From: Candidatus Krumholzibacteriota bacterium
GTDB taxonomy: Bacteria > Krumholzibacteriota > Krumholzibacteriia > JAJRXK01
Direction of reading: 5' to 3'
NCBI GenBank assembly: GCA_963764625.1
Contig: CAVXTH010000005.1
Coordinates: 320,001-384,000, forward strand
Length of the DNA: 64,000 nucleotides
The position numbers were made by a program, and so were the translations under genes. The notes under the pieces were generated by a model. That model saw only the letters and a list, made by a program, of their open reading frames with translations. It made no database searches and was not told the DNA's origin. Within the stretch, counting starts at the first letter, position 1. Every line of letters starts with the position of its first letter. This document shows positions 2,215 through 16,348 of the stretch, in pieces.

Positions 2215-3841
2215 ATGTCCGGCCCCGCTGGTAGCACAGGGGACAGAGGACCGACTTTTCCCCTCGCCGCAATGAGCCATCTCTGCGAGCTCGTGCGCCG
2301 GTACAACCGGCGCAGCTACGAGCTAGTCCTCGAGTTCGACTGGAGCACCTACCCCCGGCTCCGGCGCCTCGGACTGGACCAACTCGATCCTTCGCAGCCC
2401 GAGATCGTTCGGCGAGAGTGCCGAGCCGCTCTCGAGATTGCAGTCGAGGAGCTCGAAACGCGCCACCCCGCCGCGATCGATGACGTCTCGCCCATTTCTC
2501 TCCTGCGACGCCACGTACTCGACGGCGACACCTGGGACGTGATCCGCGCCCAACGCAAGGAGATGGGCCTGGTTCGCCTTTCCGAGCGCACACTCAAGAA
2601 CCGTCAGCACGAAGCCTATCGACTCATCCTGCGGTGGGCGGAGAGCGAGTCACTCAGTGAGGTTCCCCAGCTAGATCTTCCCTTTCATCGGCGCAAACAA
2701 CAGCTCCGGCGCGCCGCCTACGCCGGCGGAATCATCATCCTGGTCGCCCTTGTTGGGCTGGGGGATGATGCAGGTTCCCCCGCTGCGCGGCACTTCCAAG
2801 ACACCTCTGGTTGGCACATCTCTCAAAGAGCAACTGCAGAGAGTCGACGCGCGGTACATCGGAGTTCCCCTGCGTCTCACGCAATCCGAGCGGGCGGGGA
2901 TTCCTCCCCTCCAGCAACTACTCCCTTCGGCTCGTTTCCCGGCGCTGGGAACACAGTTGGGAATCTTGATGCTGCTCCCGGGGCCGCCGGGTGGCGATCC
3001 CAGAGTTCTGTTGAGCACGAAGAAAGGCGGCTACGGGGGTGGCCGTGTCTGGCTCTGGGATGCAGTGGCCGATTCGTTCGTGTGGAAACTCGAGTGGAAG
3101 CCTCCACGGGATGAGATCTTCACGCACAGTACGCTTGACTCGACGGTGTACGACCAAGCGTGGGGAGTCAGCTCCGTGACTTGGCGCTCGGGGGCGCTCA
3201 ATTTGGGAACGCGCCTGGCCATTTGTTACCAACAGTTCTATAGCCCGTGTTTCTTCCTGATCGTCGATCGAAACAGCGGAGCGCCCTTGGCGCATTACAC
3301 GCATCCCGGGTTCATCTACGGTCCCTACCTCGCCGACCTTTCCGGTGACGGAAAGCCCGAGATCCTCTGCGCGGGCACCGACAACGCGCTCAACCGTCCC
3401 GACCTCACCGTTCTGGAACCCGACATGAAAAACGGCGCGGCCTCGACCTGCATGTGGAACAAAAAAGGGGAAGGCGCGCTGTTCCGGGTCCTCTTGCCCG
3501 CGGTGCGCCCCTTGGAAGAGTCCTTCGAGGATCCACGCCTCGCGGTACGTCCCATCGAGGATCGAAACTGGTCTCCAGGCAGTGGGCTCCTGAATCTGCT
3601 CGTCTGGGGCGGGGATCGGGATCTTGAGCGTGCCTACTTCGCCCATCTCTACCACGGCTGCGAAATCCACCCCGGCCACGGTTTTTCGGTCGGGGACCAC
3701 GCCGAGTACGCCTGGCGGAAGATCGGACTCGACTTCGCGAGTATGGAAGGCGAACTCGAGCAGCAAGTCGAGGTGGTTCGGGGTCCCCACTTCGATGAAA
3801 TCATGGGATCCGTCGTTCCACAGCTCGTGAGCCGGCACTGA
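2215..3841 (+). CDS. Putative membrane-anchored regulator: HTH-like N-terminus, one TM helix, FG-GAP-like extracytoplasmic domain (frameshift near 2760)
   Basis: ORFs 2215..3114 and 2750..3841 join at a G-run at the end of the TM segment. Sigma-region-4-like pattern LLRRHVLDGDTWDVIR...LSERTLKNRQHEAY; FG-GAP-like DLSGDGKPEIL. Confidence 0.6.
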
Positions 3842-3922: not shown

Positions 3923-4237
3923 CCCAATTGCACGATATCCCGTTGACGATGCGCTCGACGGCTCCCGAGTCGAGATGCATCGGGGGGAAGTTGCACGTGC
4001 AGGGTAATAATGCAACTTCGCAAGGAATTAAATCCACTAATTCGGCGGGCAAGAACAGGCAGGACGTCCGTTCGCGGAGGAGATTCTTCGAATTGATCGG
4101 TTATTCGGGTGATTTTGATGCACTGGCATGCAGTCCAAAGTGCTTCGCTCGATGCAAATCCTCATTCTGGATTTACTTGTTCGATCCGCGACGCGTCAGG
4201 CACGGTGGAAGACGAATCTCTCCCCGGGAATCACCTC

Positions 4238-5380
4238 CTAGCCGTCGGCCGGCCGCCGGAGCATGTACGGGGTTGGAGTGAACGAGTTTTGGGGCGCTGT
4301 CAGACCCACCGCATAGATGTCCCCGTTCTCCGCTTCGGCCAGGCTCTGAAGCCTTACATCGCTGCTCTGCCACTCGATGGTGGTCTCTCCCGTCGAGTAA
4401 TGGTGGACCAATGCGCTGCCGGATTCTCCGCAGGCCAGATAGACGTCTCCGTTCGCGGCCACCAGGATGTCGTTGACCCGGTCGAGAGTTCCCGCCTCCG
4501 GGAGAACAAATTCCAGCCACTCGTCATGCACCGCGTCGTACTGCATCAGGAACGCCACGTAGTCATCTACGGCACCGGCGGAAAAGTCGGTAATGGCTCC
4601 TCCGAGCAGAAGGGCGCCCTGCTGGTTAAAGGCCACCGCCCGGAACTCGCGATTGCCACAGCCTCCGCATCCGAGCCCTTTCCTCAAGATCCACCCCGCG
4701 CCCTCGTCGGTGAGCAGTACGGAGAAGGGAGAATCCTCGTCTCCGTTCGCCCCGTCGTCGAATCCGCACCCGGCCCAGGTGCCGGAGTGCCACGCGAGAT
4801 CGACCAAGCTCTTCTCCTGCGGATCGCCGGGAAGGGGAATCGAAACCGTGGTCCAGCTTCCATCGGCCGTTCCCGAGAGTGCGAAGATGCTCGCCCCTCC
4901 CGGACCCGCTGCGAGGAAAGTGCCGGACTCATCGACGGTGACGGCCTGCAAGCCGCCATTCGTGGCCGGCAGGGCTACGCGCGTCCAGCCGGGACGCTCG
5001 GCCAAGACGAGCGGAGAGCCGGCGCTACTGATGTTTACGCCCACGATGACCCCCTTCCCTGCGCCATCGATGGCGACGGCGAGAAGGAAGTCGTCGGTAT
5101 TGACCGGAAGCGACTGCACGGACCAGTCCGCGCCATTGGACTCGAGCACGTAGTCAGGCTTGGCGCCGCTCGCTCCGGTCGAGCCCAAAGCGAGACCACG
5201 GGAGCCCTTGAAGGCGATGCTCGTCAGACCGCTCGAGGGGAGGGTATCGGGAAGCGAGACCTCGACCCACGGGCTCGATGCGGGCGGAGGACCGGTCGGC
5301 CCGTCGGAGCAGGCCACGGGTAGCATCGAGGCGAACAGGACGGCGAGCAGAAGCAGAGGGCGGGCGGAATCTAGGCGCAT
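4238..5380 (-). CDS. Lipoprotein, probable beta-propeller/BNR-like repeats
   Basis: 380 aa; lipobox (PVAC); RBS GGAGG; repeated W...L.AV-type blades. Confidence 0.7.
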   Translation of the reverse strand: MRLDSARPLLLLAVLFASMLPVACSDGPTGPPPASSPWVEVSLPDTLPSSGLTSIAFKGSRGLALGSTGASGAKPDYVLESNGADWSVQSLPVNTDDFLLAVAIDGAGKGVIVGVNISSAGSPLVLAERPGWTRVALPATNGGLQAVTVDESGTFLAAGPGGASIFALSGTADGSWTTVSIPLPGDPQEKSLVDLAWHSGTWAGCGFDDGANGDEDSPFSVLLTDEGAGWILRKGLGCGGCGNREFRAVAFNQQGALLLGGAITDFSAGAVDDYVAFLMQYDAVHDEWLEFVLPEAGTLDRVNDILVAANGDVYLACGESGSALVHHYSTGETTIEWQSSDVRLQSLAEAENGDIYAVGLTAPQNSFTPTPYMLRRPADG

Positions 5381-5576
5381 GGGTGACCTCCAGGAGAGAG
5401 GCTACGCGTGAAATCAGATGATTTCGACGCCAACAGGATACCGAGCCGTGCGCACCGCGCACAAGGGAAAGCCCTTTGCGGGGTCTTTGCCGGAAGTCTC
5501 GCGGCTTGAAGCCGAGCGTCCTTCTCCGCTATCATGAAGTCCCTGGTCGACGCTTCCTCAACCAGAAGGATGCGCC

Positions 5577-6707
5577 ATGTCATTTGCCCGCCGCGTTTTC
5601 AAACCGTCCCCTCTGCCACTGATATTCGTTTTCACTTTGCTGCAGTTCGGCTGCGGTGATGATTCCACCGGACCGGTGGACGTCACTTCGCCGCAGCCCA
5701 TATCCGAATTCTGGCAAGGCACCTACGAGAGTGCCGACCACAGTCAGGACGGCGCGTTTCTGCTTGACCTCGTGCGCACGGGCAGCGCGGTGAAAGGTCA
5801 GATCATGCTGCGCGATCGTGGGACGTCCGATACCCAGCGTCACCTCTTTCTGAGCGGCACGAGTGAAGGCGACAGTCTGCTACTGGGTTTGGACTACGAT
5901 TCCCATAGCTATCAGTTCACGTTCAACTTCGTGGGTGAGGTAGCAGGTGATTCGACGTCCTTTACGGGAAACCTCAGCCTACCCATTGCCGGACTCGCAG
6001 CTTCGGTTCAAGCGGAGAAGCAAGTTCTCGGTGAGCTCGCGGTCGATTCGAGCGAAGAGATCGACCACGACATCCACGGGCTCGCGGTCGCGGGAGACCA
6101 TCTGTGGATGAGTACGTTGGGTAGCTCGTACCTGGGAATGACATTTGCGGGTGTAGTCGATGACACGATCTCGGTACTTCTAGAAAATTACGCGCTGTGG
6201 ACGAGCGTTGGTCTCGCCACCAACGGCACCTCGTTCTGGGGAACCTGCCCGGTCACGGTGAGCGATGGGACGGATGTACACAACGTGGCCGACCTCATCG
6301 AGTTCGGATACGACGGCATGATCAACCAAAGGGTTCGGGTTCCCATGCGCGTGCCGGGACTGGCGTACGAGGGCAGCGCACTGTGGACGCTCGGACCGGA
6401 CAGCGAGGCTCTGTATCGTCTCGATGGATCGGGCAGCGTGGTCGAGACGGTTCCGATTTCCGTTCCCGACCTCATCTATCTCGAGTACGACGGAGAGTAC
6501 TTCTGGAGCGTGGGTTGGTTCCTGACGAATCTCTACCAGATCGATCGCACGGGAAAGACGGTGGCCGTGTATCACCTGCCAGACGAAGTGCTCGGGCCGT
6601 TCCCCGGCGGACTCGCGTTCGACGGAAGTAAGTTCTGGTACAGCGCGTCGCTGTCGTATCTGCGCGTGCCGGGGAGTTTGCTGTCGAGTTTTCATGTGGT
6701 GGAGTGA
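5577..6707 (+). CDS. Lipoprotein with C-terminal beta-propeller
   Basis: 376 aa; lipobox LQFGC; repeated GLA(Y/F)xGxxxW blades. Confidence 0.7.
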   Translation: MSFARRVFKPSPLPLIFVFTLLQFGCGDDSTGPVDVTSPQPISEFWQGTYESADHSQDGAFLLDLVRTGSAVKGQIMLRDRGTSDTQRHLFLSGTSEGDSLLLGLDYDSHSYQFTFNFVGEVAGDSTSFTGNLSLPIAGLAASVQAEKQVLGELAVDSSEEIDHDIHGLAVAGDHLWMSTLGSSYLGMTFAGVVDDTISVLLENYALWTSVGLATNGTSFWGTCPVTVSDGTDVHNVADLIEFGYDGMINQRVRVPMRVPGLAYEGSALWTLGPDSEALYRLDGSGSVVETVPISVPDLIYLEYDGEYFWSVGWFLTNLYQIDRTGKTVAVYHLPDEVLGPFPGGLAFDGSKFWYSASLSYLRVPGSLLSSFHVVE

Positions 6708-7022
6708 AGTCACTCGGTGATGATCTAGCTTTGATTCGGCGTGAAGGACCTCTCACGCGAGATGTGAAACCACAAAAACGGACCTTCAGCTCCGCAGATT
6801 GGTTCGTCTACTAGAGTAACTGCATTGCTGCGATTGGCTGCCTTCCTTGACATGAGCGTGCCAGATAGTGTGTAATCGTCGTTGACACAACTCGGCCCCG
6901 GCTCGCTCCCGACCGAGACCCCTCCCGAAAGGCCATTCACTGGCCATATGGACCAGCTGGCACGCGACGGACGTCGGTTGCGGTGTTTGGCATTCTATCA
7001 GTATGAGGTCTAGGAGGCACCG

Positions 7023-7418
7023 ATGAGTACTTCCCGCTTACCGGTGAAGATGACTTTTCGCAGCTACTGGTTCCGCACCCTCGTGAGTTCTCTTCTCCTT
7101 AGCAGCGCGTTTCTATGCACGATTCCGTCCGTAACCCAGGCGAAGATTATCTATAGCAACGATCGTCTCCAAGGAGACGTGGAGGCTAAGCTCGGGTAGT
7201 TCGAGCGGCGACCCGGGTGGCGGCGAGCTACTGGTTGGAAGCACAGATACATCTTCTCCGCCTATTGTGGTTCAGACTGCGTATCCAGACGCCACGTGTT
7301 TAATCAACGACAAGCAAATCCTCGCCAGCACGATACAGCGAGCCCAGACTCGCGTTGGTTTCTCCATTTCTTACGCGAGCTGTCTCGTCTGGTCCACATT
7401 CATGGATGGGGGCGCTAG
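7023..7418 (+). CDS. Small secreted protein absent from the ORF track: 58 aa as read (7023-7199), about 131 aa if two compensating indels are repaired
   Basis: RBS AGGAGG at 7012-7017, ATG 7023, signal peptide ending VTQA. The +1 frame continues SSSGDPGGGE; the original frame ends SRWFLHFLRELSRLVHIHGWGR with TAG at 7416-7418, directly before ATG 7419. Confidence 0.6.
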
Positions 7419-9857
7419 ATGAATTCTGATCTTGAGCGCGCCGTCATGCAGCTGGATGAGACTTCACGTGCGCTCCGTTCCAGACTCGAAGACTCTGCGC
7501 GCGGAACCTCGTTGAACGAGGTCGCTTCTCTCGTCGTACCGCTCACTACGGCCGGCCGCTTCAGCGATGCCATCGACTATGCAGAGCGGGCGTTTCGTGA
7601 GTGGGATAGACTTGAGCCGGGCCTTCGTAACGACATGGCGGTGCACTACGCCCTTGCACTGCATGTCACCGGGAATCGGAGAAAGCTGACCCGGTTCATG
7701 GCCGGTCCAGCAAGGAGCTTGAGCGTAGAAGCTCAAGCACGTATTCAGATCAAGTCGGCCTGGTCGGAACTTATGGGAGGTGATGATCGCAAGTCAGGTG
7801 TCACCGCGAGTTCCGCTCGACAGATCTGTGACCCGGAGGACTCTCAGCTCGTTCTGGCAGAGCTCATGTACCTGGAGGGCTATAGGTCGTTTTCGCGCGC
7901 TGGGGACCTTCATGCAGGCCGAGGAGAAGATCGATCTGGCCTGTGGTCTGTTCCGCCTCCACTCAGAGCAACTGCTACTCGCCCACGCACTTCAAGCTCG
8001 GGCAGAGATCCACTGGGGACTTGGGAATGCCGGATACGCGGAGTCACTCGCGACCAGCTCCTTGCGGCTTGCGGGATTGTTGGGCAACTATCGGACCGCG
8101 ACGGCGGCCCTCCGTCAGCACAGCATCTTCTGCTATCATCAGGCTAAGTTTGCTAAGAGCGCGAGCTCTCTTGACGCAGGCTCTCGGGTTCCACGCCCGA
8201 TTCGAGTGCAACGTAACCCCGTTCAGGTTGAAGACAGAAATAGCCCTCGCTAGACTCGAGTTACTGCTCGGAAATTCTACATCCGCGTCCGAGACCCTCG
8301 AGGAGGTCCGAGAACACGTTCCGAAGATGGATGCCATAGCCGCCGCCATGTGGCACGAATACCAGGGTATTGCCAAGGCGCAGCAGCTCGACTACATCGC
8401 CGCACTCGCGTCCTTCGAGGAATCCAAGAAGTGCCTCGCAGCTTCCGGAACCACGACTTACGAACTCGCCGAGGTGTACTGGCAAGAGGCCGAGGTTCAC
8501 CTCGCCATGCACAATCCACGGATTGCGCTGGACCTCGCCAACGATGCGCTCGAAGTCGTCGCACGAATGCGGAAACCGCCGTGAGTACGGGCAGATACTC
8601 CGCGTCAAGGCTACTGCCCTTGCCCAGCTCGCGCGCCCACAGGAAGCAATTCCTCTCTTGGAGGAAGCCGCCGTGGAATTGCGTGGTCGCAACAATCCGC
8701 TTGAGCTGGGCCGTACCCTGACGCAACTAGCGGGAGTTCTCGATCCTGAGTCCGCGGTCGAGAAGGCCAACGAGGCCCTCGCTATTTTCACTCGCCTACA
8801 ACTCTCCACTTTCGCAAACGAAGCCCGCCAAGCTCGCGATCTGGCCAGACTCCGCTTACAGGCCTTCCAAAGCGCGGAGGAGAAAAAGCACACAGTGTGC
8901 AAGGAAGGACAACTCGTTGCAGTGTCGCCCCGCATGAAAGAGGTACTCGCTGATTGCAACTTCATTGCCAGCTCTATCTCTCCCGCCGTCATCATGGGAG
9001 CTACTGGCGTGGGCAAAGAAGTGGTTGCTCGCTACATCCATGAACATAGCGAGTTTTCCAAAGGTCCTCTCGTGGCTGTGAACTGTGCCGCACTTCCGGA
9101 ATCTCTCTTCGAGCGCGAACTCTTCGGACATAAGAAGGGGGCCTTTACAGGGGCCGATCGCGATACCGCTGGTGTGGTCGCCGCCGCCTCAGGGGGAACC
9201 CTCTTCCTCGATGAAATCGGGGAACTCCCCATGGCGATGCAGGCCAAGCTGCTGCGTCTCTTACAGGAGAGCACGTACCGGCGGGTCGGGGATGTTACGG
9301 AGTACCACGCGGACATTCGGGTTTTGGCCGCTACGAATTGCGACCTCAGGAAACAAGTCGACGATAAGATCTTCCGCGAAGATCTCTGGTACCGGATCAA
9401 TGCCTTCGAGGTGCGAATTCCGCTGCTTCGCGAACGCCCCGAGGACATCGCGCCGTTGACCGATCTCTTTCTCGAGGAACAATCGAAGAAATTCGGGATC
9501 GAGTTCTGGATGGATCAACAGGTGCGTCGCCTCTTCGAACGCTACCCATGGCCAGGCAACGTGCGCGAGCTTCAATCGGCTGTGCGTGCCGGTGCCGCCC
9601 GCGCTCGAGGCGATGGTCGAATTCGGGTGCGGCACCTTCCCCACTCCCTGCGCGAGTCAAGGACCAAGAAGCCGACTCCGATCCTCTCGCTTCAACAGCA
9701 TCTCGAGGTCGAGGAACGCCGCATCATTCTGCACGCCCTGCGTCAGTGCAAAAACTCGCGCTCGCAAGCCGCTCGGTACTTGGGGATCGGGCGCAACACG
9801 CTCTACGAGAAGATGCAACGTCTGGGAATCGCGCTCGACAAGGAAGCCAAGGGCTAG
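7419..9857 (+). CDS. Sigma-54-dependent transcriptional activator with N-terminal TPR region (3 frameshifts)
   Basis: Walker A GATGVGKE, GAFTGA, LFLDEIGE, WPGNVREL, Fis-type HTH (AARYLGIGRNTLYEK). TPR-like helices spread over frames switching near 7900, 8160 and 8575. Confidence 0.9.
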
Positions 9858-9917: not shown

Positions 9918-10542
9918 CTACTTCGTCTCCACCATCGCCTTTGCTTCCGCTAAGCTCATCTGCTTGTTGTAGAGTCTATCGTCGGTCTCGCTCAGGCCGC
10001 GCGCCTTGGCAAGATTCCCCAGGAACAACGGCCCGAATCCCAGTTCCTCGATGAGCTGCCGGGCAACCGATTCCGCCTTCTTGTCGGTAGCGACGAACGG
10101 AAGTACCCGCCGTTCTTCGAGCGGCTTGCTCGTGATCACCCTCATCGCGAAGGTGTTCCCAGAAGATTGTGTTGAAGACCTTGGCGAGATGCGTCGCGGG
10201 AAGCAGGCGGTGCAGGTACTCACTTTGGGTGAGTCCTTTGAGGTCGATGGCGCCGTCGCGCGAGGGATAATAATTAGACGCGGTCAGCAGCACTTTGCCC
10301 TCGAGCTCTTCGCGGGGCAGCTCGCTGAGCTTGCCGAAGGGAACCGCCTCGATGACGATCTCTCCCTTTCGCGCAGCTTGCTGCGCCGTGGCGGCCGAAA
10401 CTTTGGGTCCCAGTTTCGCGACCAGTTCACGGAGAGTCTCCGGACCCCGCGAGTTGGCGATGACCACCTCGTGGCCACTCTTGACCAAGAGACTCGCAAG
10501 CGTTCCCCCGATATGGCCCGCTCCGATGATTCCGATCTTCAT
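9918..10542 (-). CDS. NADPH-dependent F420 reductase family oxidoreductase (frameshift near 10110)
   Basis: MKIGIIGAGHIGG Rossmann motif, ANSRGPETL, SNYYPSRDG, KVFNTI; C-terminus in ORF 9918..10223. Confidence 0.85.
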
Positions 10543-10865
10543 GGCCCACTCTCCCTTTGAGGCTCTTTTGTTCATCTCCTTCAGGGTAAAGCGGAAACTG
10601 GGGTTCCTCCACTCTATCGCATCCGCAGCGCCATCTGATCGCCATTACCTCCCACCGCGAGCACGTCCGGGGGGGCAGAGCCCCAGATTCCCGTAGTCTG
10701 AGCGGTCACTCCGGTCGACATTTGCGTCCACTCCGTCCCGTCATACTTCATGCACTTCGGAGCCAACCCACCAGGAGCGGGCGATCCACCTCGCGACGGT
10801 CTCTATCCGCAGGGAGGCCCAGGCCCCGATTCCCGGGAGCGCGGGCTGTTCGGCAGGCAGCGCTC

Positions 10866-10918
10866 AATTTTAATTATATTAAGTTTAACTTGATTTTATG
10901 TATTTTCATAGCTATTAT
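10866..10918 (+). promoter_or_regulatory. Sigma70-type promoter with AT-rich palindromic upstream element
   Basis: TTGATT (10890)-17 nt-TATTAT (10913), 22 nt before ATG 10941. Palindromes TTAAT-tat-ATTAA and AAGTT-t-AACTT lie just upstream. Confidence 0.65.
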
Positions 10919-10940
10919 ACTCTGCAAAGGGAAGGTGCTC

Positions 10941-11294
10941 ATGGATATCTCAAAGGCCCGCTGCGCGGAATGCGACCGCCCCATGGAAGTCTCGCGGATG
11001 GTCTGTCCCCGGTGTGAGGTGCGCCTGGAGGGGGATTTCGAGATCCCGGCCCTGGCCCGCCTGTCGATCGAGGATCAGGCATTCGTCGTGGCGTTCCTGC
11101 GGCACCACGGCTCCATCAAAAAGATGGAGAGCCTGTTCGGGATCAGTTATCCCACGGTGAAGAACCGCCTCAACGCGATCGCCCGCCAACTCGACGAGAG
11201 CTTCAACGTCCCCACCCCCAACGAGCTCGTTCTCGACCAACTGGCCCGGGGAGAGATCACCGTCGAGGAAGCACTCGAGAGACTGAACCCCTGA
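10941..11294 (+). CDS. DUF2089 family Zn-ribbon/HTH protein
   Basis: CxxC...CxxC, then GSIKKMESLFGISYPTVKNRL and a C-terminal LARGEITVEEA. Confidence 0.9.
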   Translation: MDISKARCAECDRPMEVSRMVCPRCEVRLEGDFEIPALARLSIEDQAFVVAFLRHHGSIKKMESLFGISYPTVKNRLNAIARQLDESFNVPTPNELVLDQLARGEITVEEALERLNP

Positions 11295-11334
11295 TCCTGT
11301 GCCCAAGATCCGATCCCAAGGAGGAGAGAAGACC

Positions 11335-11742
11335 ATGTCCCGTGAACGAGCGAAGATTCTCCAGATGGTCGCCGACGGCACCATCACTCCCGAGGAAGCG
11401 GAGAAGCTCCTGAGTCGGCTGGAGGCTCCCGGATCCAGGGTGGCCCTCGAAGCAAGCGAAACGACGTCACGCAAGAGCAAGGCCGGAGCCCTGAAGTGGC
11501 TACGCGTGGTGGTCGATGGCAAGGACAAGGTCAATGTCCGCGTCCCCATCGGGCTCATCCGGACCGGCATCAAGCTGACGACCTTGATGCCGCCAAGTGC
11601 GAGCGAGCACCTCACCGAGCATGGGATCGATCTGTCGCAGTTGAAGAATCTCGACGGCGAGGAACTGATGGACGCATTGCGTGAGCTCACCGTCGACGTC
11701 GACTCCAAGAACGGTGACACGGTTCACGTGTTCTGCGAGTAA
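11335..11742 (+). CDS. SHOCT-like domain protein (typical DUF2089 partner)
   Basis: ERAKILQMVADGTITPEEAEKLL; KVNVRVPIGL; RBS AGGAGG. Confidence 0.8.
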   Translation: MSRERAKILQMVADGTITPEEAEKLLSRLEAPGSRVALEASETTSRKSKAGALKWLRVVVDGKDKVNVRVPIGLIRTGIKLTTLMPPSASEHLTEHGIDLSQLKNLDGEELMDALRELTVDVDSKNGDTVHVFCE

Positions 11743-11797
11743 CGCACGTCAGCATGAACATTTGGAATGGACTTCTTGTGAAAAGCTGGAGACACGT

Positions 11798-13652
11798 GTG
11801 ACCTCATCACCCCAACGCATTCCTTTGGAGGATTTCTTCCGTAAACCCGAACGTGCCGGCCTCGAGCTCTCCCCTTCGGGACGCTACCTCGCGTTTCTCG
11901 CACCCTACGAGCGGCGCCTGAACGTCTGGGTACGCGATCTCGAAACGGGCAAGGAACTCCGCGTGACCGACGCCACCGAGCGCGACATCGCCGGCTACCT
12001 GTGGGCGAACGATGATCGTCTGATCTACGTGCAAGATCGCGGAGGCGACGAAAACTACCGACTCTACGGCGTTGGACGCGACGGCTCCGATCCTCTCGAC
12101 CTCACCCCGTATGAGGGCGTCCAGTGCTCGATCGTCGACGAGCTAGAGGAGATCGACGACGAGATCCTCTTCATGATGAATCGAAGGACCCCGGAGGTCT
12201 TCGACGTCTATCGGCTGAACGTCACGACCGGGGAGACGACCATCGTCGCCGAGAATCCGGGTAACGTGCAGGGCTGGCTCACCGACCACGCCGGCCGGCT
12301 GCGCCTCGCCACGACGACCGACGGCGTGAACACCAGCATTCTGTACCGCGAAACCGAAGTCTCCCCGTGGCATTCGATTGCAACCTACGATTTCAAGGAG
12401 TTGGCTATCCCGCTGTGCTTCACCTTCGATGACCGAGCACTCTACGTTGCGTCGAACGTCGGCCGGGATCGCATCGCAATCTTCGAGTACGACCTCGAGA
12501 GCGGCCGCGAAGGCCGATTGATCTTCGAGCATCCGGAGGTCGACGTGTCGTCCCTGCTGTACTCCAAGCACCGGCGCATGATTACCGGCGTGCTCTACCA
12601 CACCTCCAAGCCTGCGCATCAGTTTTTCGAAGTGCGTGATGCCGAGATTCAGCGCTTCCTCGACGAGCGGCTTTCCGGACGTTTCAATCGCATCGTGTCA
12701 CACTCCAAAGACGAGTCTCGCTACGTAGTGCACTCCAGCAGCGACCGCTCGCTCGGCGATTATCATCTGCTCGAGTCACCCGAGGGCGGGGCCCTCGCGA
12801 TGCGCAAGTTGTTCGACGCTTCGCCCTGGCTGAACGAAAGCGAAATGGCTGCGCTCGAGCCGATCGAGTATCAATCGCGCGACGGCCTGAAGATCTACGG
12901 CTACCTCACCCGCCCGCTGGGGACAGCCGGCTCTGCGGTTCCGATGGTCGTCCTCCCCCACGGAGGCCCCTGGCACCGTGATTCCTGGCGTTTCGAACCT
13001 GAGGTCCAGTTCCTCGCGAACCGCGGCCACGCCGTACTGCAGGTCAATTTTCGCAGCTCGACGGGCTACGGCCGGAAGTTCAAGGAGGCCGGGTACGGGC
13101 AGTGGGGTCTGACGATGCAGGACGATCTGACGGACGGGGTGGCATCTGGGCGGTGAAGCAGCGGCATCGCCGATCCGCGACCGGGTTGCGATCTTCGGTG
13201 GAAGCTATGGCGGATACGCCGCTCTCTCCGGGTTGACCAAGACCCCCGAGCTGTACGCCTGCGGAGTGAGCTACTGTGGCGTCTCGAACCTCTTCACCTG
13301 GATCGCCGCAATCCCGGCTTACTGGAAGCCACTTCTGGGGATGATCTACGAAATGATCGGACACCCCGAGCGCGATGCGGAGCGGCTACGGGAGACTTCT
13401 CCTTTGTTCCACGTCGATCGAATCCGCGCGCCTCTTCTCGTGGCCCAAGGGGCCAACGATCCGCGCGTTCGCAAGGAGGAATCGGACCAGATGGTTACAG
13501 CGGTGCGTGGCCGAGGCGTCGAGGTGGAGTACATCGTCAAGGACGATGAAGGACACGGTTTCCACAATGAGGAGAACGTGTTCGACTTCTATCGTGTGCT
13601 GGAGCGCTTTCTCGAACGTCATCTCGGACCAGTGTCCGAAGGCGGTGCCTAA
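11798..13652 (+). CDS. S9 family peptidase (frameshifts about 13140-13210)
   Basis: [20 protein letters not shown] nucleophile motif near 13200, [14 protein letters not shown]. Confidence 0.92.
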
Positions 13653-14530: not shown

Positions 14531-16294
14531 CTAACGCAGTAGTGCAAGGCGCTGCACGAGCTGCTTCCCCTCCGCAATCATCTGCACGAAGTAGATGCCG
14601 CTTGCCACTGGGCGTCCGGAATCGTCTCGACCGTTCCAGCTGACCGCGCCCGCGCCGACCGGATACCGCTTCGCGGGGAAGCTATGTACCCGTCGCCCCG
14701 CCGCGTCGTAGATGCGAATCGTGGGAACCTGCGCGTGATCGAGCAAGAAGCGAATCTCGGTGCGCGGATTGAAGGGATTCGGGAAGGCGCCCAGGAGCAC
14801 AGTGCGCGTAGGCACTTCGTTAGCGGCCACCCTCAAAGTCTCCAACGGAAAGATCTCCTCCCCGTCCTGCATGATCCCCAGACCGTAACGCAGTTCACCC
14901 GCAGGAGCCGCTGTGTCGAGATACACCCCGCTCGCGCCTTGCCCGCGATAGAGCTCGGCGGAAGCGCTCTCGTCGAGCCGCCGCAGGAAGACCTCCTGGG
15001 TCCCGCTCAGCGACCACTGCAGCTTTACGCCTTGCTCCACTCGCGTCCCCGTGAAGCCCTGCACCAACACTGGGGTGATCTCGCACGCCGAATCGTAGGC
15101 GCCCATGCGGCCGCAGGCGCTGTTTTCGGCCGAGGCCGGAGAATGCGTACTCAAGGTGTAGTCCCCCGCCCATCGCGCACAGAAGATCGGAGGCGCGCTG
15201 ATGTTGTCGTTACTCTTGGTAACGTCGCCGATTCCACCACGCGTGTTTGGACCATCGATTTCCCAGAAGTCGTTGCAGCCCACGGATACGCTGGCAGGCG
15301 CTTCAACTGCAGCTGCCGGCAGGCCGATGAAGAGGTTGTTTTCGATGACTCCGGAACTGGGAGCAGTGGCCTCGATCATTGCGGGCAGCTGCTCAGGCGG
15401 GAACACATGATCCCAACAAGGGGTCATGACAGGCGCGTCGGGTACGGTGGTGTCCACAAAGGTGTTGCCTTGAAGTACCACACCACCCGTGGCCCAGATA
15501 CAATCCGTGACTCCCAAGCATTCATAGTCAAGATAGTCCGCGCTCTTGAATACACCGAAATGAGCCACGAGACAGCCAAACATCTCCAGCGATTCCGCAG
15601 AATCGATCAAGAAGGGACCACAATCGAGGAACCGGGTACCTTCGATTGTAACGGGAACGATGGCGACAATGGGAGATGACTGGTTTTGAAACTCGCAATC
15701 ACGGATCGTGATGCTTCCATCCGTGGTCCCTGAATAGGCATTGTAGTCTGGCGCGATACAGTTACCACCTACTGCAGCCCCTTCCGTAATACGCTCCCAG
15801 TAGTTCTCATGGAATGCACACCGCTCGAATAGGAGTTCAAAGTTGCCGCCGTAGGCAATAGGAGGACCTTGCCCGGTCCAGATATTCTCGAACGTACAGT
15901 CGGCGAAGCTCACCTTTGACGAACTCACGGTAATACGTCCCTCGCCAAAGCCACCGGTAAAGCCTATCTCACCGAGAATGAACCCCTTGACTTGGGCTTG
16001 CCCCAGATTGCTCGCGCCCATGCCTCCGAGCCGATTGGCGCCGAGTTCGCGGGAGAGGAGCGTGATGCCATGGCTCAGCTCCACGACGCCGCCGTCGAGA
16101 GTATTTGGCGCCACGCTAACACTGTCACCATCAACGGCAGCGGCCAGCGCAGCCTCGAGAGTGTAGTTCTCGGGAACCAGAAGCGTGGTGGCGTGCGTCA
16201 CACCGGGGACTGCCGCGAGGACCAGCGGAAGGAGGATCAGTGCGTAAAAAAAAGCGCAAACGCGGCCAATGAAACCAAATATCAATTTCACCAT
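14531..16294 (-). CDS. Secreted right-handed beta-helix protein with C-terminal FlgD-Ig/T9SS-like domain
   Basis: Signal peptide; CxFxxN repeats; NISAPPIFC; AFPNPFNPRTEI...WNGRDDSGRPVASGIYF. Confidence 0.85.
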   Translation of the reverse strand: MVKLIFGFIGRVCAFFYALILLPLVLAAVPGVTHATTLLVPENYTLEAALAAAVDGDSVSVAPNTLDGGVVELSHGITLLSRELGANRLGGMGASNLGQAQVKGFILGEIGFTGGFGEGRITVSSSKVSFADCTFENIWTGQGPPIAYGGNFELLFERCAFHENYWERITEGAAVGGNCIAPDYNAYSGTTDGSITIRDCEFQNQSSPIVAIVPVTIEGTRFLDCGPFLIDSAESLEMFGCLVAHFGVFKSADYLDYECLGVTDCIWATGGVVLQGNTFVDTTVPDAPVMTPCWDHVFPPEQLPAMIEATAPSSGVIENNLFIGLPAAAVEAPASVSVGCNDFWEIDGPNTRGGIGDVTKSNDNISAPPIFCARWAGDYTLSTHSPASAENSACGRMGAYDSACEITPVLVQGFTGTRVEQGVKLQWSLSGTQEVFLRRLDESASAELYRGQGASGVYLDTAAPAGELRYGLGIMQDGEEIFPLETLRVAANEVPTRTVLLGAFPNPFNPRTEIRFLLDHAQVPTIRIYDAAGRRVHSFPAKRYPVGAGAVSWNGRDDSGRPVASGIYFVQMIAEGKQLVQRLALLR

Positions 16295-16348
16295 CTCCGC
16301 ACCTCCCAAGACGAGATGAGGCGCGGGAGCCACGCACCAGTATAGCAC

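Follow-up and report, generated by a model that had tools for sequence, protein, structure and literature searches.

A conserved two-gene cassette of a small signal-peptide protein and a TPR sigma-54 activator in Krumholzibacteriota

The stretch of DNA considered here (the window, 64,000 nucleotides) belongs to a genome of Candidatus Krumholzibacteriota bacterium (GCA_963764625.1), assembled as 3.57 Mb in 9 contigs, and corresponds to positions 320001-384000 of contig 5 (CAVXTH010000005.1). It contains a two-gene cassette in which a small gene, encoding a protein with a predicted Sec-type signal peptide, is directly followed by the gene of a TPR-containing bacterial enhancer-binding protein (bEBP), that is, an activator of sigma-54. 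The cassette is almost certainly real and conserved, and it ties an unannotated small-protein family, exported by prediction, to a putatively TPR-gated sigma-54 activator throughout an uncultured phylum. Between near-identical strains, a block comprising the apparent ligand part of the small protein and the sensor part of the activator has been swapped, which suggests a ligand-and-receptor module without earlier description. The chance that the two proteins form a cognate ligand-receptor pair, by whichever route the ligand travels, is judged to be slightly better than even. Peptide signalling through cytoplasmic TPR receptors is generally regarded as particular to Firmicutes and to the mobile elements they carry.

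The cassette and its two proteins

The ribosome-binding site, the ATG at 7023 and the signal-peptide start that the first-pass annotation had described are all present at the positions it gave. The predicted signal peptide opens with a basic N-terminus, continues in a hydrophobic core and has a small-x-Ala site that ends at residue 40 (7140-7142). In the letters of the window, frame 0 from this ATG ends at a TAG (7197-7199) after 58 codons. The annotation had read a GDP motif in the +1 frame beyond this stop, where the motif G-D-P-G-G-G-E is indeed found, and had noted that frame 0 stays open to a tail whose stop touches the activator; frame 0 reopens at 7200 and runs to a TAG at 7416-7418, which abuts the activator ATG at 7419. 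Its suggestion that these pieces belong to one protein of about 131 residues is borne out by the reference genomes G002, G003 and G004, three further species of the same genus as the window genome. Each has a single open reading frame (ORF) of 131 codons with the same order of parts: signal peptide, G-D-P/glycine motif, linker and aromatic/basic tail. In all three, its stop codon touches or overlaps the activator start. The parts of the small gene in the window are as follows.

7012-7017, + strand: ribosome-binding site AGGAGG, five bases before the ATG at 7023; conserved in G002 and G003
7023-7142, + strand: part 1, predicted Sec-type signal peptide of 40 codons in frame 0; layout the same in G002, G003 and G004
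7143-7186, + strand: still in frame 0, as far as the first extra base (about 7187-7190)
7188-7300, + strand: part 2 in frame +1, a Ser/Gly run that holds the family motif G-D-P-G-G-G-E (7207-7227), followed by the first part of the variable linker
7304-7342, + strand: linker, probably in frame +2, flanked by the second extra base and the third (about 7338-7343); the second indel is placed between about 7296 and about 7309, a position inferred rather than pinned down
7344-7418, + strand: part 3 in frame 0, with the aromatic/basic amphipathic tail at 7350-7415 and the stop codon TAG at 7416-7418

Between G002 and G003, the ratio of nonsynonymous to synonymous substitution rates (dN/dS) is 0.13 in the tail (codons 110-131) and 0.57 in codons 1-66, where dS is unusually low at 0.32, while the linker is saturated. 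The G-D-P column is invariant in the alignment of the small proteins (A1). By these sequence comparisons, the small ORF is a genuine gene and a conserved one. Seven small proteins gave no match near the cut-off in Pfam or NCBIfam, the pieces from the window gave none either, and a search of the ESM Atlas with the small protein returned no usable match. With six members as queries, a word-indexed search returned 6 proteins, and two of these carry the name Candidatus Krumholzibacteria. An HMMER search with a 22-member profile, run against 1.84 billion representatives, found 106 clusters at E <= 1e-3 and 12 at E <= 1e-10. Almost all are 100-135 residues long (median of the representatives 120, range 81-192, a few below 100).

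With the window's own fragment and one outlier of 576 residues set aside, 105 representatives were analysed. A signal-peptide-like N-terminus, by a crude rule, is present in 102 of them and G[DE]P in 101, the motif lying a median of 22 residues past the putative cleavage site. In an AlphaFold2 model of the G003 small protein, built from 24 sequences, residues 9-33 form a helix, residues 34-107 are unstructured (predicted local distance difference test score, pLDDT, about 50) and residues 108-130 form a terminal helix (pLDDT about 78-85). The small protein is thus predicted to be largely disordered with a terminal helix. A PEP-CTERM or other C-terminal sorting signal was considered and rejected, the motif lying 45-60 residues from the tail and not beside it.

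The activator gene starts with the base after the small-gene stop and has the following parts.

7419-9857, + strand: whole activator gene, 813 codons in the window; 811-817 intact codons in G002, G003 and G004
7419-8877, + strand: N-terminal TPR-type solenoid of about 485 codons, read in frames 0, +1, +2 and back to 0
8916-9413, + strand: AAA+ (sigma-54 interaction) domain, in which Walker A and GAFTGA are present (PF00158, E = 1.7e-62)
9429-9674, + strand: AAA+ lid domain, AAA_lid_14 (PF25601, E = 2.3e-18)
9702-9857, + strand: Fis-type HTH_8 DNA-binding domain and stop codon (PF02954, E = 8.4e-14)

Among the marks of a bEBP, the protein has an AAA+ domain (Walker A motif and GAFTGA-type loop), a Fis-type helix-turn-helix (HTH) domain and, encoded in the same genome, sigma-54. 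The G003 orthologue matches Sigma54_activat at E = 2.4e-63, and the motif G-[ASC]-[FY]-[TS]-G-A is kept in all 40 complete activators checked. An rpoN gene on contig 9 of the source genome has an open frame of 489 residues (DNA-binding domain E = 1.3e-64). Among the NCBIfam equivalogs, which include NorR, PrdR, RtcR, PEP-CTERM PrsR, NifA and NtrC, none was matched above its curated cut-off; NorR came closest (325 bits, cut-off 476), and all matches are confined to the AAA+/HTH part.

The N-terminal region had been taken to be TPR, and modelling agrees. Pfam matches to TPR_12 and TPR_MalT are weak in the pieces from the window and clear in the intact G003 protein, where TPR_MalT itself is weak. 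An AlphaFold2 model of G003 residues 1-485 (26 sequences) is a 24-helix TPR-type solenoid with a pLDDT of 91.6 and a predicted template modelling score (pTM) of 0.88. Its Foldseek neighbours are TPR superhelices: APC5, LGN/PINS with bound partners, Tom71, OGT, APPBP2 and MalT domain III, the last (1hz4) being the best match when normalised to the target (TMt 0.76). LGN/PINS, APC5, Tom71 and MalT domain III bind peptides or ligands. No RRNPP receptor is among the Foldseek matches listed for the TPR domain; a profile search of the PDB with this domain again gave TPR proteins, among them RapJ, RapF and NprR at 1e-8 to 7e-7, and reached AfsR at 4.5e-10.

The cassette occurs throughout the phylum. 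A profile of six TPR domains matches 206 of the 208 phylum genomes, often several times per genome. The activator side was sampled through the best 20 phylum matches in distinct genomes with open frames of about 790-870 residues; frames of about 980-1060 residues and two frames cut at contig ends were left out of this sample. At all 20 loci, a signal-peptide-like ORF of 97-128 residues with a G[DE]P-type motif lies directly upstream of an activator of 796-867 residues, and the stop codon of the small ORF often overlaps the activator start. The same arrangement is found in G005, G007 and G009, and in G012 with a variant small ORF of 75 residues. The small-protein side was scanned in one genome per GTDB species with one subfamily motif (A5), which gave 48 stretches, 17 of them relatives (by title, 10 Krumholzibacteriia/Krumholzibacteriota, 5 unclassified and 2 'uncultured Fibrobacteraceae'). 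At all 17, a long ORF begins at the small-ORF stop or overlaps it; 14 of these ORFs are complete (847-944 residues) and 3 are cut by the contig end. There is also a second class of activator, of about 1020-1060 residues with TPR_12/TPR_MalT and Sigma54_activat; at each of the 10 loci sampled for it, a signal-peptide ORF lies upstream, with an acidic G-D-x-D-D motif in 9 and an aromatic/basic tail in 9. The adjacent small signal-peptide ORF that the first-pass annotation wished to see beside homologous activators was therefore present at every locus examined. The small-protein profile matches 57 of the 208 genomes, up to 4 times per genome, which is an undercount since it was built without the second-class types.

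Several loci depart from the simple arrangement. In G006 (L021), two tandem ORFs with signal peptide and G-D-P (2700-2978 and 3096-3449) precede one activator, and the cassette has a PAS-sigma-54 activator upstream and a subtilase downstream. At four loci of family f4 (L032, L033, L035 and L039), a shorter sigma-54 activator of 572-617 residues is encoded near the cassette on the opposite strand. The source genome has a second cassette on contig 9 (L046:753-1066 and L046:1159-3999) with a longer activator frame of about 1036 residues; its signal-peptide ORF is split by a frame change, and the G-D-P part lies in the other frame.

Co-variation of the small protein and the TPR domain

The main indication that the two proteins recognize each other comes from a metagenome contig, L041, and its comparison with G003. 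The two are 96-100% identical in DNA over 4.2 kb upstream and over positions 5326-6325, while between them, at L041 positions 4199-5325, lies a block of about 1.1 kb in which identity falls to 32-58%, with one interval at 71%. In the small protein, residues 1-66 are identical at 65 of 66 positions and residues 67-131 at 26%; in the activator, residues 1-310 are 33-53% identical and residues 311-660 are 99% identical. The divergent block thus starts right after the G-D-P motif and ends about 310 codons into the activator, the part (to about 8350 in the window) that is variable between strains. The L041 block lies roughly as far from G002 and G003 as the corresponding block of G004 does, which makes it an old allele in a G003-like background. 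A second, partial case, within the species of the window itself, is seen between one short-read contig from X1 and the window, which are 97% identical over 6811-7262 and 85% over 7369-7493, then 96-99.7%, with 7262-7369 replaced.

Across 29 cassettes, a partial Mantel test that controls for distance in the AAA+ domain relates distances in the C-terminal half of the small protein to those in residues 1-310 of the TPR domain (r = 0.35, p = 0.0005); with the N-terminal half of the small protein, r is 0.13. Four cassettes were excluded, two mis-parsed (L021 and L029) and two not parsed (L035 and L036). Taken with the sharply bounded block, this result answers in the positive the check for co-variation that had been proposed for the small ORF and the TPR domain.

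A putative ligand-receptor pair and its alternatives

The cassette may be understood as a two-gene, translationally coupled signalling unit, in which the variable C-terminal half of the small protein would be the cognate ligand of the variable N-terminal 310 or so residues of the solenoid. Binding of the ligand would gate assembly of the AAA+ ring, and hence sigma-54-dependent transcription. That the small protein binds the TPR domain directly, as its cognate partner, is judged more likely than not, with support from the co-variation. The likeliest route would be from the outside in: after export, the small protein would be cleaved in or close to the conserved G-D-P motif, and its C-terminal part, or a fragment of it, would return to be read by the TPR domain, which would amount to self-signalling with RRNPP-like logic and a sigma-54 output. 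The conserved signal peptide and G-D-P leader would then serve export and perhaps processing. This route is favoured by the signal peptide, the disordered pro-region, the pherotype-like blocks, the presence of several diverged pairs per genome and the Opp-type binding proteins; SBP_bac_5 binding proteins of the Opp type are found in the source genome, as is Omp85. It is nevertheless advanced tentatively, as possible but short of an even chance, because the implied interface is long, no processing or import genes accompany the cassette and an outer membrane is present. Its fullest form, a self-encoded pheromone used throughout the phylum, which is exported, processed at G-D-P and sensed through its hypervariable C-terminal part, with pherotype alleles kept under balancing selection, is somewhat doubtful.

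Several points weigh against the outside-in route and against the pairing in general. The conserved mature length of about 80-90 residues and the variable receptor part of about 310 are unlike the peptides of 5-10 residues and the small pockets of RRNPP systems, and re-entry would have to cross two membranes. No conserved third gene for a protease, exporter or importer was found among 50 neighbouring ORFs at 7 loci. The signal-peptide calls come from a rule made for this analysis and not from SignalP. The Mantel test is inflated by shared ancestry, since related sequences are not independent, and the strain-level block is known from one clean case and one partial one, so that a single recombination tract could have crossed the junction by chance. 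On the output side, no convincing -24/-12 consensus was seen near the cassette (the exact pattern occurs at 1 of 70 loci), and a scan of the window for sigma-54 promoters gave 2 one-mismatch matches, which is the chance level, neither of them upstream of the operon. In the one RNA run with a contig here (X18), that contig covers 8887-9134 only and none covers 7023-7418; it may also reflect DNA carry-over.

The pair could also be cognate by a different route, in which the small protein acts from within the cell. Before export, it would sit extended in the TPR solenoid and hold the activator off (or on); Sec export would remove it, and the activator would so report export capacity or the state of the envelope. 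Similar logic is known from FlgM/sigma-28, from ExsE/ExsC and from the co-activating TPR chaperones IpgC and SicA. A switch of this kind is consistent with the tight translational coupling with the small gene first, with the predicted disorder of the mature part of about 90 residues, with the likeness of the solenoid to LGN/PINS and the APC subunits, which hold long extended peptides, and with the lack of a conserved importer or protease nearby. It also suits the length of the co-varying parts: a block of about 65 ligand residues and 310 receptor residues appears to fit a long extended interface better than a peptide of 5-10 residues, which argues against a strict RRNPP reading as well. However, there is no known precedent for a Sec substrate acting in this way, and no obvious reason why one species background should hold old, sharply different alleles, although avoidance of cross-talk between paralogues, with up to 4 small-protein matches per genome, could contribute. 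The internal switch is therefore considered unlikely, though not strongly so.

A third explanation dispenses with contact between the two proteins. The small protein would merely be made from the same transcript and end up secreted or in the envelope, for example as an adhesive, surface or antimicrobial peptide, or its gene would simply be the first in the activator's operon; its fast evolution would reflect pressure from outside, and the 5' divergence of the L041 activator would be a recombination tract running on. In all close pairs, the small protein does evolve fastest in its C-terminal half, membrane-active peptides commonly have amphipathic aromatic/basic tails, and the clean block is a single case. 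This explanation does not sit well with adjacency at 20 + 17 + 10 loci, in two activator classes and several families, with other neighbours changing; functional coupling seems to be needed if adjacency is kept while every other neighbour changes. The block, moreover, starts exactly after the motif and ends inside the TPR domain with 99% identity beyond, and the stop/start overlaps point to a fixed stoichiometry. Absence of contact is accordingly given a low probability, lower than that of the internal switch.

The ligand-receptor reading invites comparison with the RRNPP pairs of Firmicutes and their phages (Rap-Phr, NprR-NprX, PlcR-PapR, PrgX and AimR-AimP). In these, as by prediction in the cassette, a small pro-protein with a Sec signal is encoded beside a cytoplasmic TPR transcription receptor, the ligand part lies towards the C-terminus (as is proposed here), and several diverged pairs may occur in one genome; the cassette genes are likewise direct neighbours. 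In the PlcR-PapR pherotypes, ligand and receptor vary together between strains, much as they do in the cassette. The differences lie in the receptor and in the sizes. The cassette receptor, of 810-870 or about 1030 residues, carries an AAA+ motor and a Fis-type HTH; the small gene is upstream and translationally coupled; the host belongs to a diderm candidate phylum; and, among the structural matches listed, the nearest TPR folds are of a general kind (LGN, APC5 and MalT III) and not those of RRNPP receptors. Where it sets out the RRNPP signature, PMC10075063 gives 250-500 residues for the receptor and 10-100 for the propeptide, and the cassette pro-protein has 100-135 residues (131 in G002-G004). 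The cassette thus departs from two of the five signature criteria, both on size, and falls outside the size limits that RRNPP-search tools use (PMC10075063).

The activator is a bEBP and not an RRNPP homologue, and its N-terminal domain is, by its model and profile matches, a TPR domain of generic likeness, which speaks against a strict RRNPP reading. The first-pass annotation had proposed that a peptide from the small ORF is the RRNPP-like ligand of a TPR-bEBP. Of this idea, the conserved gene, the adjacency, the TPR fold and the co-variation have held up, whereas the sizes of receptor and propeptide do not fit.

Other known systems resemble the cassette in single features. In the bEBPs controlled in trans (PspA-PspF, NifL-NifA, HrpV-HrpS and FleN-FleQ), a sigma-54 activator is also set by a separately encoded partner. 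PspA, NifL, HrpV and FleN are cytoplasmic and act on the AAA+ domain, while the cassette partner has a predicted signal peptide and the co-varying surface is the N-terminal TPR solenoid. STAND regulators of the MalT/AfsR type have a long TPR-type sensor solenoid beside an ATPase module, but their ATPase is NACHT/NB-ARC-like, the sensor is at the other end, the output goes by way of sigma-70 and no secreted partner is known to be encoded beside them. In comQXP and agrBDCA, a sharply bounded diverged block covers the signal and sensing parts in near-identical genomes, as in L041; the proteins are unrelated, and the block of the cassette is known from one clean and one partial pair, whose alleles are candidate pherotypes. 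Searches of the literature, with subscription journals outside their coverage, turned up neither a described TPR-bEBP that has a secreted partner nor any account of sigma-54 or quorum sensing in Krumholzibacteria.

If the pair binds, bEBPs would gain a new class of input, a TPR solenoid whose ligand is a protein or peptide; the cassette would offer a means of searching for cell-cell or envelope-state signalling in diderm bacteria, and the natural pairs of G003-type and L041-type alleles would make its specificity directly testable. Should the pheromone reading be true, the cassette would be the first RRNPP-like peptide-receptor pair outside Firmicutes and the first wired to sigma-54.

Frame breaks and surroundings of the cassette

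In DNA alignments with G002 and G003, the window has a single extra base near each of 7187, 7296, 7338, 7909, 8154 and 8561, and at 7209 it is 3 bases short. Three of the +1 insertions fall in the small gene and three in the activator gene, and both genes regain frame 0 by their ends. Contigs from public short-read salt-marsh runs, which hold 30-60% of sampled words of the stretch, have one letter fewer at 7187/7190, 7343, 7909/7912, 8158 and 8563, and GGA added behind 7209. The extra bases are absent from these contigs at five of the six sites, and the site near 7296 lies in an uncovered or replaced stretch. Since short-read contigs lack the extra bases and neighbouring genes are frameshifted as well, the breaks are, by these alignments, most likely residual insertion errors of the assembly and not biology. 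The local indel rate on which the first-pass annotation leaned is real in the letters, with six +1 bases and four frameshifted neighbours, and is most likely such an artefact. Single-base insertion errors alone, as a practical lesson, were enough to hide the small gene in the assembly. Reading the TAG at 7197 as a read-through or recoded stop was rejected: the orthologues show a frame change and not a sense codon, and the short-read contigs drop one base.

That the operon is instead decaying in the window genome, with the six extra bases as true mutations, is very improbable: six frame-breaking single-base insertions do lie within 2.8 kb of assembly, and the short-read contigs without them are 90-99% alike and may be other strains, but breaks of this type also affect four unrelated neighbours and, on a different contig, the second cassette. 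All six changes are +1, three per gene, so that both genes come back into frame 0, and translation across the breaks gives a well-conserved protein (66-83% identity to G003). Near-identical contigs are without the extra letter, for example an X2 piece over 8452-8764, which differs from the window by 3 other letters and 1 gap.

The four neighbour genes that change frame once each relative to their G002/G003 orthologues lie at 2542-3838, 9921-10596, 10875-11739 and 11783-13637, and include an F420_oxidored-type gene, a DUF2089 gene pair and a Peptidase_S9 gene. The part of the contig around the cassette has about 1 indel per 1-1.5 kb, which makes ORF calls there unreliable.

Upstream of the small gene, a three-way alignment of the window, G002 and G003 is more conserved over 6847-7022 than in coding DNA, and two elements can be set apart in it.

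6847-6876, + strand: possible sigma-70-type promoter, TTGACA at 6847-6852, an 18-nt spacer and T-G-TAAT at 6871-6876 (T(G/C)TAAT across the window, G002 and G003)
6880-7011, + strand: conserved leader of about 130 nt, with a CCTCC stretch and a 22-bp imperfect palindrome at 6960-6981

The promoter-like hexamers are conserved in all three genomes; a consensus scan missed the pair, the second position of the second hexamer not being A. A sigma-54 promoter at TGGCAC (6958) was tried and rejected, the spacing to TTGC being wrong and the element not conserved in G002/G003. Rfam has no match in the leader. RNAalifold pairs the CCUCC of the leader with the GGAGG of the ribosome-binding site, and nothing covaries across the 3 sequences. 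From its sequence, the palindrome at 6960-6981 could be an operator, for example for the HTH of the activator itself.

Two proteins of about 380 residues with lipoprotein- or signal-like N-termini and no Pfam family are encoded before the cassette, at 4238-5380 (- strand) and 5577-6707 (+ strand); both are syntenic with it in G002 and G003 and not in G004. At the candidate orthologous locus of G001, the neighbour gene is only a 27% match. C-termini of the FlgD_ig or Por_Secre_tail type occur near several cassettes, at 14534-16348 (- strand) in the window, at 11657-13324 (- strand) in L016 and at 7452-8456 (- strand) in L022. Because these are C-terminal domains of the sorting type, a type IX-like secretion route is probable in this lineage.

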